Positions 3,209 through 39,575 of a stretch of DNA of 64,000 bases are shown here, piece after piece. The notes below the pieces were generated by a model, which worked only from the letters and a program-made list of their open reading frames with translations, was not told where the DNA came from and searched no databases. Origin of the DNA: Burkholderiales bacterium (lineage in GTDB: Bacteria; Pseudomonadota; Gammaproteobacteria; Burkholderiales; Burkholderiaceae_C). Each line of letters opens with the position of its first letter. Position 1 is the stretch's first letter. The translations under genes and the position numbers were made by a program. The stretch lies in the NCBI GenBank assembly GCA_038208175.1, contig JBBQZA010000001.1, positions 4,984 to 68,983 of the forward strand. The letters are read 5' to 3'.

Positions 3209-4672
3209 TCACAACAGGCTTCGATACAAGGCAGCGTATTGCCGTGCGGCACCTGACCAGTCAAAGATCTGGCGCATCCCGGTGTGACGCACGCGGCTCC
3301 ATTCTGCAGGACTCCGGTACAGCACGAAGGCCCGCCTGACAGCCTGGCGATAGGCGATGTCGGTGAAGGCATCGAAAACAAAACCGGTGGCCGTTGCCGT
3401 ATCCAGCGTTTCAAAGTCGACATCGACCACCGTATCGGCCAGGCCGCCAACACGCCGCACCAGCGGCAGGCTGCCGTATTTCAGGCCATACATCTGCGTC
3501 AGGCCACAAGGCTCGAAGCGCGAGGGCACCAACGTGACATCGCTGCCGGCAAAGATGCGGTGCGCAAACGTCTCGTCATATCCCAGGCGCACCGCCACCT
3601 GGCCCTTGTGGATTTGTGCCTGCTCTGCAAAGGCCGCCTCCAGCGCCGCATCGCCACTGCCCAGCAGCAGCAGTTGACCACCATCAGCGATGATTTCATC
3701 CACGCCAGCCAGCACCAGCGGCAGTCCTTTTTGTTCGCTCAGCCGGCTCACCACGGTGAACAGCAGCGCGTCGGCGCTGACCTGCAAGCCTGCTTCGGCT
3801 TGCAACTGTGCCTTGTTGAGCGCCTTTCCGGCCAGGTGTAGAAGGTCGAAGCGGTGAGCGATCAGAGGGTCGGTGGCCGGATTCCAGACCCGGCCATCGA
3901 CCGCGTTCAGGATGCCGCTCAGGTGCGTCGATCTTGCTCGCAGCAAGCCATCCAGTCCGCAGCCCTGCTCGGCGGTCTGGATTTCCCGCGCATAACTGGG
4001 GCTGACGGTGGTAATGCGGTTGGCGTAGAAAAGTCCGGCTTTCATGAACGACAACTGGCCGTGAAACTCGATGCCATCGATGTTGAAGGCGTGCGCCGGA
4101 AGTCCCAAATCAACGAAGCATTCAGCGCCAAAAACGCCCTGGTAGGCCAGGTTGTGCACGGTGTAAACGCTGGGTACCCGGGGTGCCTTCGCGTCCGGCC
4201 ACAAGGCCAGACAGGCCACTGCCAGCGCAGCATGCCAGTCGTGGCTGTGCACCAGTTGGGGCTGCCAAAGACGGTCGGTTCCATGCGCCAGATGCGCCGC
4301 TCCCCAGCCCAACGCAGCGAAGCGGCGATGGTTGTCGGCATAGGGTCGCTTGTCAGCGTCTTCGTAGGGGTTGCCGGGCCGATCGAACAAGCCAGGAGCC
4401 AGCAGCACGTAGGCCCGAATTGGCTGCTTGCCGCTGGACAGTGTCGGCAGCACGCCGCCGGCAATGGCTACCAACTCGCCCCAGGGCGTCAGGAATCTTC
4501 CGACGATCGCTTCCTCCTGCAGAGCGGCTCGAATGGCGGGCAGTCCGGGCAGCAGCACCCGCACATCACAGCCAGCCTCCTGCAAGGCTGCCGGTAAGGC
4601 CCCGGCAATGTCGGCCAGCCCCCCGGTTTTGAGCAGGGGAAAGATTTCGGCGCTGACCTGCAGGATTCGCAT
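3209..4672 (-). CDS. glgA: Glycogen synthase
   Basis: KTGGLAD, HSHDWH, TVHNLAYQG, PSRFEPCGLTQ motifs; directly downstream of glgC. Confidence 0.97.
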   Translation of the reverse strand: MRILQVSAEIFPLLKTGGLADIAGALPAALQEAGCDVRVLLPGLPAIRAALQEEAIVGRFLTPWGELVAIAGGVLPTLSSGKQPIRAYVLLAPGLFDRPGNPYEDADKRPYADNHRRFAALGWGAAHLAHGTDRLWQPQLVHSHDWHAALAVACLALWPDAKAPRVPSVYTVHNLAYQGVFGAECFVDLGLPAHAFNIDGIEFHGQLSFMKAGLFYANRITTVSPSYAREIQTAEQGCGLDGLLRARSTHLSGILNAVDGRVWNPATDPLIAHRFDLLHLAGKALNKAQLQAEAGLQVSADALLFTVVSRLSEQKGLPLVLAGVDEIIADGGQLLLLGSGDAALEAAFAEQAQIHKGQVAVRLGYDETFAHRIFAGSDVTLVPSRFEPCGLTQMYGLKYGSLPLVRRVGGLADTVVDVDFETLDTATATGFVFDAFTDIAYRQAVRRAFVLYRSPAEWSRVRHTGMRQIFDWSGAARQYAALYRSLL

Positions 4673-4683
4673 GCTGAAGGCTT

Positions 4684-5997
4684 TCAGCTGGTTGGCGCAG
4701 CGGCCAGGCGCTTGAGCATGTCACGCGTCACCAGCACCACCCCCTCTTCAGTGCGCTCAAATCGCTGTGCATCCAGCAAAGGGTCTTCGCCAATGACCAG
4801 GCCAATGGGCAGCGTGCAGCCACGGTCGACCACAACCTTTCTCAGCCGGCACTCGCGCCCGATCGTCACGTCGGGCAACAAGACGGCCTGGTCGATGACG
4901 CAATAGGAATGCACCCGCACACTGGAAAACAAAACGGAATTACTGACCACCGAGCCCGACACAATGCAACCGCCCGAGACCATGGTGTTGATCGCCTGCC
5001 CGTGCTTGCCGTCTGCGTCCTGCACAAATTTGGCCGGTGGCAATTGCCGCTGGTAGGTCCAGATCGGCCAGTTGGTGTCGTAGATGTCGAGCTCGGGTGT
5101 GACCGAAGCCAGGTCCAGATTGGCAGCCCAAAATGCGTCGATGGTACCGACGTCACGCCAGTACGGCTTGGCCTCTGGCGTGGTCGAGACACAGGACCGG
5201 GAGAAGGGATGCGCCATCGCCTGGCCTTCGCGCACCACGCGGGGAATGACGTCCTTGCCAAAATCGTGACTGGAATGCGGGTTGGCCAGTTCGTCTTCCA
5301 GCACCTGGTACAGGTATTGGGCATTAAAGACATAGATTCCCATGCTGGCCAGAGACAGAGCGTCATTGCCGGGCAGGGTCGGTGGATTGGCAGGTTTTTC
5401 AACGAACTCGGTGATTTTTCTCTTGTCGTCTATCGCCATCACCCCAAAGGCCGATGCTTCTTCGCGCGGCACTTCGATGCAACCCACGGTGCAGCCCAGG
5501 CCGCTTGCCACATGGTCCCTGAGCATCAGCGAATAGTCCATCTTGTAGACGTGATCCCCGGCCAGTACCACCACGTACTCCGGCTTGCTGGACTGGATGA
5601 TGTCCAGGTTCTGATAGATGGCGTCGGCCGTACCGCGGTACCAATGTTCTTCATCGATACGCTGCTGGGCCGGCATCAGGTCCACCATTTCATTGAGCTC
5701 GGCGCGCAGGAAACTCCAGCCGCGCTGCAAATGGCGCAACAGCGAGTGCGACTTGTACTGGGTAATGACGCCAATACGGCGGATACCGGAATTCACGCAA
5801 TTGGACAGCGCAAAGTCAATGATGCGGAACTTGCCGCCAAAGTAGACCGCCGGCTTGGCGCGGGTGTCGGTCAGCTGTTTCAGACGCGAGCCGCGCCCCC
5901 CGGAGAGCACCAGCGCCAGCGTACGGCGCACCAGCATATGGGGCTCCAAATGCCGCGCTGACTGCGCGCTGGTGTCCGGGGTTTGCAAAGTGCCCAC
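4684..5997 (-). CDS. glgC: Glucose-1-phosphate adenylyltransferase
   Basis: [49 protein letters not shown] motifs. Confidence 0.97.
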
Positions 5998-6144
5998 AGC
6001 GGTTTCCTTCTCTTGGATGGCGGTTGCTCGTTGGCGACCCGATCAACAGGGGGTTTGACCAGATCAGATAACGCGATTGTCACCCAACCGACATGCCATG
6101 GGCTGCCTCGATTTCGCTCCGGGGCAGGTGCCCCGGCAGTCACG

Positions 6145-7287
6145 CTATTTCAGCAATTTCCAGTCGCCGTTCTCGATCGTCGCCATGACCACGGCGCGGC
6201 TGTCGAATCCGTTGTGGTCCTTGGCGCTCATCGAATAGACGCCATGGGTGGCTGGCAATTCCTTGACCGCTTCCAGCTCGTCGCGCAGCGCGAGACGAAA
6301 TTCCGGTGTGCCGGGTTTGGCTTTCTTCAGCGCCGCCGGTATCGCGCGCGTCAGCAGCAAATAGGCATCCCAGGCGTGGCCGCCAAATGTCGAGCGTGAG
6401 TTGGCGCCGTGAGCCGCTTCGTAAAGTTTGATGTACTCGAGCGCCGGTTTTTTGGACGGATGACTGTCGGCAAGCTGTTCCGCCAACAGCATCGGACCCA
6501 CCGGGAATATCGTGCCCTCGACGGCCTTGCCACCAACGCGCAGGAAGTCGCGGTTGGCGATGCCATGCGTCTGGTAGTAGCGTCCCTTGTAGCCGCGCTC
6601 CACCAGGGTGGATTGCGGCAGCACCGCCGGTGTGCCCGAGCCAGCGATCAACACCGCATCCGGATTCGTGCCGAGTATCTTCAAGGCCTGGCCGGTCACC
6701 GAAGTGTCATTGCGCTGGTAGCGCTCGATCGCGGTCAGCTTGATGCCCTTGGGCTCCGCAGCCGCTTGCAGCGCTTTCAGCCAGCCTTCGCCATAAGGGT
6801 CGGCGTAGCCGATGAAGCCCACGGTCTTCACACCATTGGCCGCCATGTGACCGACGATGGCCGCAGCCATCACATTGAAGCCCTGTGGCGTCACGAAGAT
6901 CCAGGGCCGCTTGTCTTCGGCCGGCGCTACCGGTGCCATCGAAATCTGCGGCGTCTTGGACTCGAACGCCACTTCCAGGATGGCCATCGAGGTCGGCGTC
7001 GCTGTGGCGGCCACCAGCACATCGACCTTGTCCTCGGACGTCATCTTGCGCGCATTCTTTACCGCGGTGGAGGTGTCGGTGGCATCGTCGAGAACGACAT
7101 AGCGCACTTTCTCGCCGGCGATGGTGGCCGGCAGCAAGGCAAATGAATTTTTCTCCGGAATGCCCAGCGAAGCCGCCGGACCGGTGGCTGAAACGCTGAC
7201 GCCGACCGTGATGTCGGCCAGCACCGGGGCTGTCATGGCACCCAGTGCCAGACTGGTCAAGGCGAGAAAGATAGCTTTGGTTTTCAT
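6145..7287 (-). CDS. ABC transporter substrate-binding protein, branched-chain/aromatic-acid (PBP1) type
   Basis: Signal peptide; SATGPAASLGIPE, LDDATD, QTHGIAN motifs typical of benzoate/aromatic-binding PBP1 proteins. Confidence 0.85.
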   Translation of the reverse strand: MKTKAIFLALTSLALGAMTAPVLADITVGVSVSATGPAASLGIPEKNSFALLPATIAGEKVRYVVLDDATDTSTAVKNARKMTSEDKVDVLVAATATPTSMAILEVAFESKTPQISMAPVAPAEDKRPWIFVTPQGFNVMAAAIVGHMAANGVKTVGFIGYADPYGEGWLKALQAAAEPKGIKLTAIERYQRNDTSVTGQALKILGTNPDAVLIAGSGTPAVLPQSTLVERGYKGRYYQTHGIANRDFLRVGGKAVEGTIFPVGPMLLAEQLADSHPSKKPALEYIKLYEAAHGANSRSTFGGHAWDAYLLLTRAIPAALKKAKPGTPEFRLALRDELEAVKELPATHGVYSMSAKDHNGFDSRAVVMATIENGDWKLLK

Positions 7288-32458: not shown

Positions 32459-32542
32459 GCGCCGGTTGGAGCGACACATCGGCACCCGCCGCCGATCAGC
32501 GCAATCGTCATCGACGCGCGCAGGCAAGGTTGACAGCGCGCG

Positions 32543-32602
32543 TTACAACGTTGGCGGTCACCGGGGAGCCGAAGGCGAGTCCAGTGGACCAACCGGTTAG
32601 CC
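32543..32602 (-). other. attC site (60 bp)
   Basis: Minus strand GGCTAAC-CGGTT-GGTCCAC...GTGACC-GCCAAC-GTTGTAA; extra base in L''; DUF2442 stop codon lies inside R''. Confidence 0.8.
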
Positions 32603-32854
32603 AGCTGCGCCCGAGACCAGCGGGAATGCCGCCGGATTACGTATGGACTGAACCGACAAGTCGACGTCCAACCCCGGCCAATAAAGATGGTCAGGGGTAG
32701 GCCACTGAACTTCTGATATTTGCTCAATCGTGGCCTTTCGAAACCAAGGGAATTGGTCGAAGGGTACGAGCAGTTCTTCATCGGAAAGCAGAAGCCAGAA
32801 ACCATGCTTCGACACGTGGGTGACTTCAGCCGCCGAAATGGTGGGTCCAGGCAT
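32597..32854 (-). CDS. DUF2442-family protein (putative TA partner)
   Basis: EVTHVSKHGFWLLL...VPF..FPWF...WP.LDVDL. Confidence 0.8.
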   Translation of the reverse strand: MPGPTISAAEVTHVSKHGFWLLLSDEELLVPFDQFPWFRKATIEQISEVQWPTPDHLYWPGLDVDLSVQSIRNPAAFPLVSGAAG

Positions 32855-33065
32855 CTTGGATCTCCTTTAAGTGCGCGTTCACAACTGCTTGCGCTTGACG
32901 AATTTGCGTCGCGGAAAGACCAGTATGGTTAGCCAACGTCACTTGCGGAAGAAGCCAGAACTTGGCCTCGCCGTCTGCATGCGCAACATGCACGTGAACG
33001 CGCGTCTCTTCGCGAGAAAAGAAGAAGAGGCGAAACTGACCGTCACGAACAATGGTTGGCGCCAT
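32826..33065 (-). CDS. DUF4160-family protein (putative TA partner)
   Basis: MAPTIVRDGQFRLFFFSREE.R.HVHV....GEAKFWL. Confidence 0.85.
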   Translation of the reverse strand: MAPTIVRDGQFRLFFFSREETRVHVHVAHADGEAKFWLLPQVTLANHTGLSATQIRQAQAVVNAHLKEIQDAWTHHFGG

Positions 33066-33101
33066 GTCGGTACTGTAACCAACTTTCGCTCCAGCAGGCT
33101 A

Positions 33102-33625
33102 ATCGGGATAGGAAGAAGCCTCACGGCCCCTCCCTCCCACACCACCGTGCGTACGGGTCACGTACACGGCGGTTCGGCAGATTGAGTCAGCATGCATCAA
33201 CACATTGTGCCAAATTGACACATTGAATCTGCGCATGACAACCGGAGCATCATTTCTGACCGCGCCAACCACGCGTTCACCCCAGCCCGCAGACTCACGC
33301 CCACAGGACTCGCCGGGTGCAGTCGCATCATTCCTTGGCAAGTGATTTCCCCTCTCTTTCAATCCCCTCTCGGGGCACCGTTCGGGCCTTTGGAAAACCC
33401 TTTGTGGCTCGGCGCCTTGGCTGGTCCACTACGCCCTCTGCTGACTTCTGTGCTGCGGTCAAGGCCGGTTTCCCGTCCTTCCGTCGTTGCCGCTTTCGCG
33501 TTGGCGACACAGGGCAGATCTCCCGTGGTAAGACACGAATCCTTCCTCGCATAGACGCCGGATTTACAAAATGCAGCCCATTTGCAGATGGAGGGCTTGG
33601 TGGTCACGTGCCCACTGGCCCCGGT
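33102..33625 (-). mobile_element. Group II intron, class IIC, ORF-less and 5'-truncated, inserted at an attC core site
   Basis: Minus strand: domain V GAACCGCCGTGTACGTGACCCGTACGCACGGTGGTGT (33175-33139), domain VI ending CTATCCCGAT at 33102; upstream class-C-like segments TCTTACCACGGGAGATCTG and AGAAGTCAGCAGAGGGCGTAGT; no RT motifs; 3' exon TAGCC. Confidence 0.85.
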
Positions 33626-33724
33626 GCCATGCAAAACCAGCACCCGAACCCGCGGCCGCTGGAACGCGCGGCAATCCGGCAACTGCTGCAAGATGCGTTT
33701 GAGGGAGTGCGGGCGAGGGAGTGA
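33626..33724 (+). pseudogene. C-terminal remnant of maleylacetate-reductase-like (Fe-ADH family) gene, copy 1
   Basis: AMQNQHPNPRPLERAAIRQLLQDAFEGVRARE resembles the NPYxNPRPxERxAIRxLLQxAxEG C-terminus of maleylacetate reductases. Confidence 0.6.
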
Positions 33725-33741
33725 TGAGCGTGTCGACAGCC

Positions 33742-34221
33742 CTACAAGCGTGCCTGACCAGCGGCTCGCTTGAGCAACATGACACGGTTAGTCGCGAACC
33801 AATCGCCAACTTTTTCCAGGAAAGGTGCCGCAATTGCGATTCCCTCTTCTACTTCATCGACCTCCACCTTGAAAGCGGCGCGGTACTTGCGGTTTCTCCA
33901 ATCGCGCAGGGTGTCCAATTCATCGAACTGATGTTGCGTGAGCCCGACCGCTTGGGCCGCGCCCTCGAGTACCACCGCATGGTGCCCCTTTTCGCTTCCA
34001 GCTCGATACCCTTGGGCGCATGCAACGGCCAGACAGCAAAAAAGAACGGCGTCATAGGCCGCGTCCATACGGGTGGCTGGTGACACCGCCTTCATCCTCG
34101 CGTCTTTGAGCTTGATTTGCGCCTGCTGCAGCCAGGACATCACGTCTGGGCCATTAGCCGGCTGCTCGCGTAGCGGCGAGCCCGGCTCAGCGCTCAGTTT
34201 CTGAAATGACTGCAGCATCAA
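33742..34221 (-). CDS. HEPN-domain protein (MNT-HEPN TA partner)
   Basis: AYDAVL, GHHAVV, LRDWRNRKY; overlaps the MNT gene end. Confidence 0.7.
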   Translation of the reverse strand: MMLQSFQKLSAEPGSPLREQPANGPDVMSWLQQAQIKLKDARMKAVSPATRMDAAYDAVLFCCLAVACAQGYRAGSEKGHHAVVLEGAAQAVGLTQHQFDELDTLRDWRNRKYRAAFKVEVDEVEEGIAIAAPFLEKVGDWFATNRVMLLKRAAGQARL

Positions 34222-34786
34222 AATCCCCTATCAATGCGATCTTCGGGCCGCGCACGATTTCGCCTGCAAAACTCTCCCTAGCCTGGATCTGATTTCGAAA
34301 ACCTTTGATGGTACTGACGGATGCATGGACTGGGCGCCCGAGCTTGCGGCCAACAGGTTTGAGAAGGGTGTTGAGCTTCAACTCAGAGACGTTGCCGAGC
34401 GCGAGCACATCGATGTCGCTGTCGGCGTTTTCATCGCCGCGTGCAATGGAGCCAAAGAGGAGCGCAACCTGGACGCCTTCCACGCCATCGAGAAAGTCGC
34501 GAAGGGCATGGACCAACGCGCTGTCTTGCTGCATCAGCGTGACCAAGGGTGCCAAAGAAGTGTCCTTGCTCGCGTAGTACCGAGGCAGCCCGTCTTTTTG
34601 TACCCGCTGCACGAGTCCCGCCTCCGTCCACCGTTTCAGTAGGCGGGAGACGTTCCCGGGGTCTATGCCGGCTGCTTTGGCCAGTTCCCGTTGGCCGAAA
34701 CCTCGACCTGGCTCAGAAAAAATCGCACGCAATGCCTTGTACCGGTCGGCGCTTCCGAAGATCTCAGTGAGAGTGGCTTGGTTCAT
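34187..34786 (-). CDS. Minimal nucleotidyltransferase with N-terminal HTH (MNT antitoxin)
   Basis: LFGSIARG...DSDIDVL; N-terminal GQRELAKAAGIDPGNVSRLL HTH. Confidence 0.85.
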   Translation of the reverse strand: MNQATLTEIFGSADRYKALRAIFSEPGRGFGQRELAKAAGIDPGNVSRLLKRWTEAGLVQRVQKDGLPRYYASKDTSLAPLVTLMQQDSALVHALRDFLDGVEGVQVALLFGSIARGDENADSDIDVLALGNVSELKLNTLLKPVGRKLGRPVHASVSTIKGFRNQIQARESFAGEIVRGPKIALIGDFDAAVISETER

Positions 34787-34946: not shown

Positions 34947-35040
34947 GGCGACATTGCACTGTAGAACCGATACCCTGATCTGCGGCCACTGGAACGTGCG
35001 GCAATCCGGCAACTGCTGCAGGATGCGTTTGAGGGGGATG
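34947..35040 (+). pseudogene. C-terminal remnant of maleylacetate-reductase-like gene, copy 2
   Basis: GDIAL*NRYPDLRPLERAAIRQLLQDAFEGD; 50/53 nt identical to copy 1 over 34983-35035. Confidence 0.6.
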
Positions 35041-35118
35041 CGGCCTTGGGGGTGAAGAGCGGGTGGGAAGGGCTTCAACGAGCCCATGGCGGTCGTCGCG
35101 GGCTTTGGAAAGCGGACT

Positions 35119-38163: not shown

Positions 38164-38253
38164 GCCTAATCGATTAGAGCTAACCGGCGCTGCGCGGCTT
38201 TATCGCGCAGCGTCCAGCGACCGAAGGGAGCGAGGTTGAGCGCCATGGTAGGT
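38164..38253 (-). other. attC site (90 bp), both cores mutated
   Basis: Plus strand GCCTAAT...GAGCTAACCGGCGCTGCGCGGCTTTATCGCGCAGCGTCC...GGTTGAGCGCCATGGTAGGT; cores read ATTAGGC and ACCTACC on minus. Confidence 0.65.
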
Positions 38254-38808: not shown

Positions 38809-38892
38809 ACCTAACGATCAGCGTTTATCTGCCGAGAGGCAAAGCTGGAAGAAACCAAGAGCGCCTCCTTCGGCAGATAAACCACGTTGGAC
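38809..38892 (-). other. attC-like site (84 bp), near-identical to 39492-39575
   Basis: GTCCAAC...GTTAGGT ends; 12-bp arms GTTTATCTGCCG/CGGCAGATAAAC; atypical spacers. Confidence 0.75.
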
Positions 38893-39491: not shown

Positions 39492-39575
39492 GCCTAACGA
39501 TTAGCGTTTATCTGCCGCGAGGCAAAGCTGGAAGAAACCATGATCGCCTCCTTCGGCAGATAAACCTTGTTGGAC
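39492..39575 (-). other. attC-like site (84 bp), first of the array
   Basis: GTCCAAC...GTTAGGC; DUF2784 ATG lies 7 bp after the core. Confidence 0.75.

Follow-up and report, generated by a model that had tools for sequence, protein, structure and literature searches.

Introduction

Group II introns that carry no gene of their own are considered rare in bacteria, and the introns associated with integrons have been described as antisense, bottom-strand elements. The canonical IIC-attC introns, S.ma.I2 among them, sit in the bottom strand at the R'' site (TTGT/T; here and below a slash marks a point of insertion or cutting), antisense to the cassettes (PMC3001079, PMC7923331). The one published top-strand case, an intron in an Enterobacter cloacae class 1 integron (Rodriguez-Martinez, Nordmann and Poirel 2012), is cited in PMC7923331 for its 'unusual target', and, judging from the description given there, the introns of pR148 and pPp47 discussed below appear to be of the same type. 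Bacterial group II introns without an ORF, served in trans by related RTs, are known from dnaN of Trichodesmium and from copies in Thermosynechococcus (PMC4424553, PMC12584367), and 5'-truncated group II relics in integrase-less arrays have been reported from the CALINs of halophiles, namely UHB.F1 and H.ha.F1-F2 (Sonbol and Siam 2021, PMC7923331).

Here we describe the remnant of an intron on the minus strand of a 64,000-nucleotide stretch of Burkholderiales DNA (the window), together with the family to which it belongs. With the canonical introns (S.ma.I2, Kl.pn.I3; PMC3001079) its lineage shares the class C ribozyme, the attC hairpin, the GT/T heptamer and the 3' end ...CCCGAU; the canonical elements, however, lie antisense at R'' (TTGT/T), between a gene and its attC, and their RTs are only ~45% identical to those of the lineage, whereas the window's intron is sense and its 3' exon opens a cassette. 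The E. cloacae, pR148 and pPp47 introns agree with it in being class C, in the top strand, at GT/T of R' and sense to the cassettes, but those of pR148 and pPp47 are 1.84 kb long and contain an RT/maturase, while the window's family has no ORF and a domain IV (D4) of 183-204 nt, and the first ~170 nt are missing from the window copy as well.

The Trichodesmium and Thermosynechococcus introns have in common with the family a ribozyme without IEP, multiple copies and the existence of related IEP-encoding introns. They belong to IIB/CL and are each restricted to a single genome in which the helper is present too, in contrast to the class C, attC-targeted family, which spans many betaproteobacterial genera and metagenomes, usually with no detectable helper in the same assembly. 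The halophile relics are, like the window copy, 5'-truncated and located in integrase-less arrays, but UHB.F1 is a fragment of a canonical antisense IIC-attC intron with a frameshifted RT and the H.ha fragments are IIB (PMC7923331), whereas the window copy is sense and has no RT. We consider it very probable that positions 33102-33625 of the window hold a non-functional, 5'-truncated copy of an ORF-less IIC intron of ~0.7 kb, from a family targeted to the top strand of attC and most likely served by RT in trans.

The intron remnant and its boundaries

The group IIC remnant, delimited by Rfam matches and by alignment to complete relatives, occupies 33102-33625 on the minus strand. The first-pass annotation had read intact domains V-VI and recognisable parts of domains I-III from the letters, and two Rfam models bear it out with matches on that strand above their gathering cut-offs: RF00029 Intron_gpII (D5-D6) at 33174..33102 (42.8 bits, cut-off 40) and RF01998 group-II-D1D4-1 at 33482..33385 (36.9 bits, cut-off 35). 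Domains V and VI (33102..33175) keep an intact D5 helix, a D6 with the bulged A (CCU-A-UCCC) and the 3' end GAU, and the IIC ribozyme features include, besides the D5-D6 model match and the bulged A, a terminus ...CCUAUCCCGAU at 33102. Domain IV (33176..33379) is composed of a 5' arm at 33379..33244, a closing hairpin at 33243..33185 and a short 3' arm; it contains no RT ORF, as had been noticed at first sight, although its length is 204 nt and not the ~170 nt initially given. The remaining 33380..33625 comprise domain I from intron nt ~171 to its 3' end, followed by domains II and III. In the domain I part, ACGU at 33609..33606 is a candidate EBS1, proposed from the conserved (A/G/C)CGT that ends the 5' exons of relatives.

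The window copy equals nt 171-693 of a complete 693-nt element (L076), with 95% identity over 523 aligned nt, and these 523 nt as a whole are 95-96% identical to L076 and L079, which reside at other attC sites in two other genomes. Its D5-D6 is 94-97% identical to the intron of genome G106 and 89% to the pR148/pPp47 introns, and its D1 piece is 88% identical to nt 173-289 of the G106 intron and 82% to pR148. The sequence upstream of 33625 shows no alignment with nt 1-170 of L076, G106 or pR148. Since the homology begins at 33625, which equals L076 nt 171, ~170 nt of the 5' end are missing, in agreement with the first reading, and with them a complete domain I and the 5' GUGYG splice site; complete relatives start GUGYGCC.

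The RT/maturase ORF in domain IV that marks an autonomous retroelement is absent from the window copy, and no RT remnants were detected in its D4 by blastn, tblastx or tblastn with two RTs. An apparent 'N-terminal RT' similarity in the tblastn search proved to be the translated D4 leader.

In all 26 complete relatives a hairpin followed by NCGT precedes the intron and a T follows it; the window keeps the 3' side alone, as the T of TAGCC. The 5' exon of the copy is lost, and that it was once inserted into an attC is inferred from its 3' flank alone. An assembly chimera or MAG artefact at 33625/33626 can be dismissed, for 33596-34300 is covered, with 0 differences across the junction, by an independent Logan contig from what is probably the source run (X1). 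More abundant relatives, in the same and in other metagenomes, run past 33625 into a normal intron 5' part. The window copy, with no 5' splice site, a third of domain I gone and no RT found in the genome, is an inert scar.

The cassette array and its coding strand

The remnant is embedded in an integrase-less cassette array at 32.5-39.6 kb of the window. Upstream of the array we find a LysR gene and no intI there. The array ORFs with Pfam support (DUF4160, DUF2442, an HTH-nucleotidyltransferase, an AbiU2-type HEPN and a SHOCT lipoprotein) are all on the minus strand, and so are BrnT/BrnA-like ORFs with weak, sub-cutoff matches. The attC sites were read by eye. A promoter and terminator scan of 32500-34300 gave nothing above chance.

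The 3' exon TAGCC (33101..33097, minus) is the right half of the R' core GT/TAGCC and opens the downstream cassette (32543..33096, minus), which consists of DUF4160 (32826-33065) and DUF2442 (32597-32854), with Pfam scores of 53.3 and 59.4 bits, above cut-offs, and an attC at 32604..32543. This attC carries an R'' GGCTAAC at 32604..32598, the exact complement of GTTAGCC, and therefore TAGCC is a genuine R' half-site; the initial identification of the core stands, with the complementary R'' at the end of the very same cassette. The L'' arm of the attC is one base longer than L', as in attC-aadA1 of pR148. Together with the uniform minus orientation of the Pfam-supported cassette genes, this extra base confirms the earlier assignment of minus as the top strand, and it follows from the orientation of these genes that the intron is sense to the cassettes.

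On its truncated side the intron adjoins, at 33626..33727 (plus), the tail of a maleylacetate-reductase or Fe-alcohol-dehydrogenase-like gene, its last ~30 codons and stop, inverted with respect to the cassettes. The closest match to this segment, with 78% DNA identity, is the 3' end of a 355-aa ORF of Cupriavidus oxalaticus (L053 2486-3553, ...LQNQYPNPRPLEAGAIRELLQNAWEG); the segment was also considered as intron sequence, as an IS and as a fragment of IntI, and these readings were rejected. A second, diverged copy of the tail lies at 34965-35047 (plus), 87% identical over 83 nt, and the two tails, inverted relative to the array, flank an MNT/HEPN cassette.

Directly beyond the first tail, 33728..33794 (minus) can be read as a partial attC of this upstream MNT/HEPN cassette, with an R''-like GACTAAC and both L arms (CGTGTC...CAAGCG-loop-CGCTTG...GACACG) and with no GTT after them; by direct reading, it would be an attC that lacks its R' core. 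In the soil metagenome run X3 the 88 nt at window 33706-33793 are replaced by 77 other letters. Elsewhere in the array, attC-like sites at 39492-39575, 38809-38892 and 38165-38241 (minus) have an odd geometry and a common end ...CTAATCG(A)TTAGGC, and the CGAT/TAGGC piece of these sites at 38-39.6 kb resembles the intron 3' junction CCCGAU/TAGCC; they are possible intron footprints.

Orientation of the lineage

The antisense, bottom-strand position given for canonical IIC-attC introns in the first-pass annotation agrees with the literature (PMC3001079, PMC7923331) and with Kl.pn.I3 in two plasmids (L050/L051), where ltrA is opposite to blaIMP and the junctions read TTGT/GUACGCC...CCCGAU/TAGAAAT. 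The nearest plasmid relatives of the window's intron, those in the class 1 integrons of pR148 (NC_019380) and pPp47 (MG516912), show the other arrangement: ltrA is on the cassette strand and the intron is inserted in the top strand at GT/T of R' (attC...GCGT/GUGUGUC...CCCGAU/TAGAT).

Full-length relatives from the same order and genus (G047:C2, G106:C100, G252:C2 and others) follow the same rule of an attC hairpin, CGT before and T-R-R-R-Y after the intron, sense to the cassettes, which for the RT-bearing relatives gives attC...CGT/GTGYGCC...CCCGAU/TRRRY on the strand of the cassettes. The 3' junction of the relatives is CCCGA(U/A)/T-R-R-R-Y in all, and the window's own CCCGAU/TAGCC is of the type seen in pR148, pPp47, G047, G106 and G252; the D5-D6 of G106:C100 is 97% identical to that of the window. 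The IEPs of the canonical IIC-attC introns make up a monophyletic clade; the G047 RT shares 62% identity with that of pPp47 and only ~45% with Kl.pn.I3-type RTs.

The suggestion that the window holds an atypical top-strand insertion must thus be given up: every relative checked, in pR148, pPp47 and the Burkholderiales arrays, is sense at GT/T of R', and for the lineage of the window insertion in the top strand is the norm. For this top-strand lineage, which is abundant in the present data, the literature offers one precedent.

ORF-less relatives at other attC sites

A fragment in genome G485 has the window's post-D3 sequence in common, and for this reason public collections were scanned for the 31-nt motif CCCGAACGGTNCCCCGAGANGGGATTGAAAG. 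The family sample is defined by exact matches to this one motif in species-representative genomes and metagenome contigs. The scan returned 56 other loci, 12 of them in genomes (Rhodoferax, Polaromonas, a Burkholderiaceae isolate, four Sulfuritalea loci, Thiobacillaceae, Nitrosovibrio and a Nitrospiraceae-labelled MAG) and 44 on metagenome contigs. The distance from the motif to the intron 3' end is 248-285 nt at 41 loci, counting the window, with one outlier at 411 nt, and only 4 motif loci (L102, L110, L119, L124) have a full RT ORF, which starts ~150 nt after the motif. The resulting ratio of 41 ORF-less to 4 RT-bearing loci is biased and no census, the sample having been drawn with one exact 31-nt motif.

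Twenty-six of the ORF-less copies are complete, with lengths of 634-835 nt (mostly 658-738 nt), and they occupy at least 20 different attC sites, in each case with GUGYGCC directly after a hairpin ending in (A/G/C)CGT and with T-R-R-R-Y behind the 3' end. Copies that are 93-96% identical to each other occupy sites with different 5' and different 3' exons, and one metagenome assembly contains two such copies. The alternative put forward at first reading, a non-autonomous mini-intron lineage with a later truncation, is thereby upheld: the ORF-less architecture recurs at ~40 other loci with conserved ends and with the covariation described below, and the window copy has lost its first ~170 nt.

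Truncation at the 5' side is the usual fate of retroelement copies, and it was observed at ~12 of the 46 assessable family loci. A truncation hot spot at intron nt ~170 was considered and rejected for the relatives among the genome contigs, where the coincidence was an artefact of the query start.

Several further arrangements were noticed in the arrays. Those of related genomes contain many small fragments of the lineage, as in L004 (G047:C95 4966-5072 and 5915-5940), L017/L005 (G024:C287) and L061/L071 (G485, a Rhodoferax MAG). These fragments include a D1 piece of 105 nt, a 5' end of ~25 nt that follows a shortened attC, a 3' end of 150 nt directly behind the stop codon of a cassette, and 42 nt joined to the end of an ORF for a membrane protein. 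Intron position ~nt 170, where the window copy begins, is also the start of two fragments (G047:C95, G024:C287). In L079 (Polaromonas MAG JBKJOH010000118) domain I of an otherwise complete mini-intron is interrupted at element nt ~166, a few nt from the truncation point of the window copy, by a 77-nt insertion that carries a perfect hairpin, ACAAACAGTCC-TGA-GGACTGTTTGT, and a duplication of ~6 nt, and the variant is also present in run X3. In L082 (Sulfuritalea MAG JAXMJU010000084, ~4070-5040) the D3 region of a mini-intron adjoins the 3' end of an unrelated group II intron, whose RT is 28% identical to P0001, which suggests that one intron was inserted into another.

Domain IV and covariation

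The ORF-less D4 matches the D4 leader of the RT-bearing L119, L124, L110 and L102 up to ~15 nt before their RT start codon; it continues with a short hairpin of variable sequence and ends with the conserved 3' arm GACUYAAUCUGCC. The domain is therefore closed by a short structure at the place where the ORF would be, in a ribozyme that is otherwise conserved, with GUGYG, D5 and D6 kept throughout the family.

Covariation was assessed on 25 distinct sequences, with pairwise identities down to ~70%, using an RNAalifold structure of D4-D6 with 76 pairs. Pairing is possible in 98.6% of the cells against 92.2% in shuffles, and 28 pairs show double changes against 13.6 expected, a number reached in 0 of 500 shuffles; slid controls are at most 45% paired. 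Pairs of D5 and D6 covary across the family, and in the hairpin that replaces the ORF the pairs at columns 153-197 and 154-196 have 9-10 double changes among the 25 sequences. This argues for selection on the fold after the loss of the ORF, as would be expected of a ribozyme that still splices and binds RT.

A ribozyme tree of 29 elements (D1-D3 plus D5-D6) interleaves RT-bearing and ORF-less members at 5 well-supported places, though the ORF-less D4s are all alike. The expectation that the ORF-less elements form one clade was not supported by this tree, and the interleaving suggests either recombination of mini-introns with their autonomous relatives or repeated loss of the ORF.

Search for a helper RT

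A cognate RT elsewhere in the genome, which the first-pass annotation had proposed to look for, did not turn up: no class C RT or GIIM domain was found in the window's own genome, and this absence is weak evidence, for the MAG is 91.6% complete and consists of 430 contigs. Among the 11 other genomes with family members, only 3 have a class C RT at E<=1e-30, and a resident helper is thus not the rule; the incompleteness of the MAGs weakens this negative as well. RT-bearing relatives are present on the same contig in L076 and in L092/L112.

The window's genome contains a second group II intron relic, of a different class (G000 contig C211 ~6090-6863; L001 867-1574). It matches Rfam D1D4-6 with 76.8 bits and D5-D6 with 54.3 bits, and its RT ORF is internally deleted, the start MLLVTPHEIRMLQRKLYAKAKK being joined to a C-terminal piece.

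Discussion

From the observations above it would be logical to propose that the family goes back to IIC introns with an RT gene, which enter the top (cassette-coding) strand of attC by reverse splicing. The insertion point is the GT/T boundary within the R' core, immediately after the attC hairpin, which may play the role of the terminator stem-loop used by other IIC introns, with base pairing probably provided by a short IBS1 (NCGU) and IBS3 (U). In the family the RT ORF in domain IV has given way to the short closing hairpin, with the ~135-nt D4 leader kept as a likely RT-binding site, by analogy with other group II introns. Complete members are most likely non-autonomous retroelements, spliced and mobilised in trans by the RT of related introns, and cassettes may also carry them as passengers from one genome to another.

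The window copy was presumably inserted at GT/TAGCC before the DUF4160/DUF2442 cassette, and it later lost its first ~170 nt, which contained the 5' splice site and a third of domain I at its 5' side, as well as the upstream R' core. Probably this was a single deletion, with the other end in the inverted maleylacetate-reductase-like gene. The copy is now unable to splice or to move and persists as co-transcribed leader DNA.

The most serious alternative is that the ORF-less elements are not mobile at all, and that one ancestral deletion of the ORF was spread by homologous recombination and by hitch-hiking on cassettes moved by integron integrases, with the common structure reflecting nothing but recent ancestry. 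IntI cuts at G/TT, 5' of the intron. By the logic of the sequence, an intron placed as G/T-intron-TRRRY moves with the downstream cassette on such a cut, so that a part of the intergenome spread may indeed be hitch-hiking; 8 of the 11 genomes with copies, and the window's genome too, have no detectable class C RT; and L095 and L105 share the same 5' exon with different 3' exons, a demonstration that an exchange of flanks needs no retromobility. The same logic sets a limit, since with the crossover 5' of the intron the 3' exon is not exchangeable by IntI, and for at least 20 sites neither the 5' nor the 3' exon is the same. Pairwise identities down to 67-75%, with compensatory double changes in 28 pairs, those of the ORF-replacing hairpin included, point to long-term selection on the fold and not to recency. 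We consider it unlikely that passive spread accounts for the whole family.

Much less probable still is a one-off decay of a full-length RT-encoding intron, with both the ORF and the 5' end lost in situ, even if unique intron fragments abound in the arrays of related genomes (G024:C287, G047:C95, G485/L071). The same D4 with its closing hairpin occurs at 95-98% identity in the complete L076 and L079, and in a diverged form at ~40 loci; the loss of the ORF consequently predates the insertion in the window, and the 5' truncation alone is local. That a canonical IIC-attC intron of the S.ma.I2/Kl.pn.I3 type landed exceptionally in the top strand is the least credible of all, for, while both lineages use a GT/T heptamer by an attC hairpin and a palindromic attC has the motif on both strands, the RTs of the closest RT-bearing relatives are 62% identical to the sense-type pPp47 RT and 45% to the Kl.pn.I3 type, and all members of the window's lineage are sense-oriented.

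Returning to trans-mobilisation, we may go one step further and suggest, with a confidence only a little above even, that an undescribed, MITE-like family of ~0.7-kb class C mini-introns exploits the non-recombinogenic top strand of attC, with a covarying ribozyme and a D4 leader with which to borrow RTs, and that it recombines with its helpers and outnumbers them in environmental Burkholderiales. Recombination with helpers would explain the interleaved ribozyme tree. Copies that are sense to the cassettes could be spliced from array transcripts, and so could persist as nearly neutral passengers and spread with the cassettes.

Introns of this kind, without an ORF and in the coding strand of integron recombination sites, apparently make up an undescribed family: the openly searchable literature yielded no account of a class C family that is both ORF-less and attC-targeted, and an earlier description elsewhere is possible. 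One decayed copy has led to at least ~40 ORF-less class C introns, sense to the cassettes, at 20 or more attC sites, in several betaproteobacterial genera and many metagenomes. If they are mobilised in trans, they would represent a bacterial parallel to SINEs and MITEs, non-autonomous retroelements within integron arrays, and a second route by which introns come to cassette boundaries, opposite in strand to the known one. This would have a bearing on the expression of cassettes, for a sense intron can be spliced out, and on the models of intron-based cassette formation.
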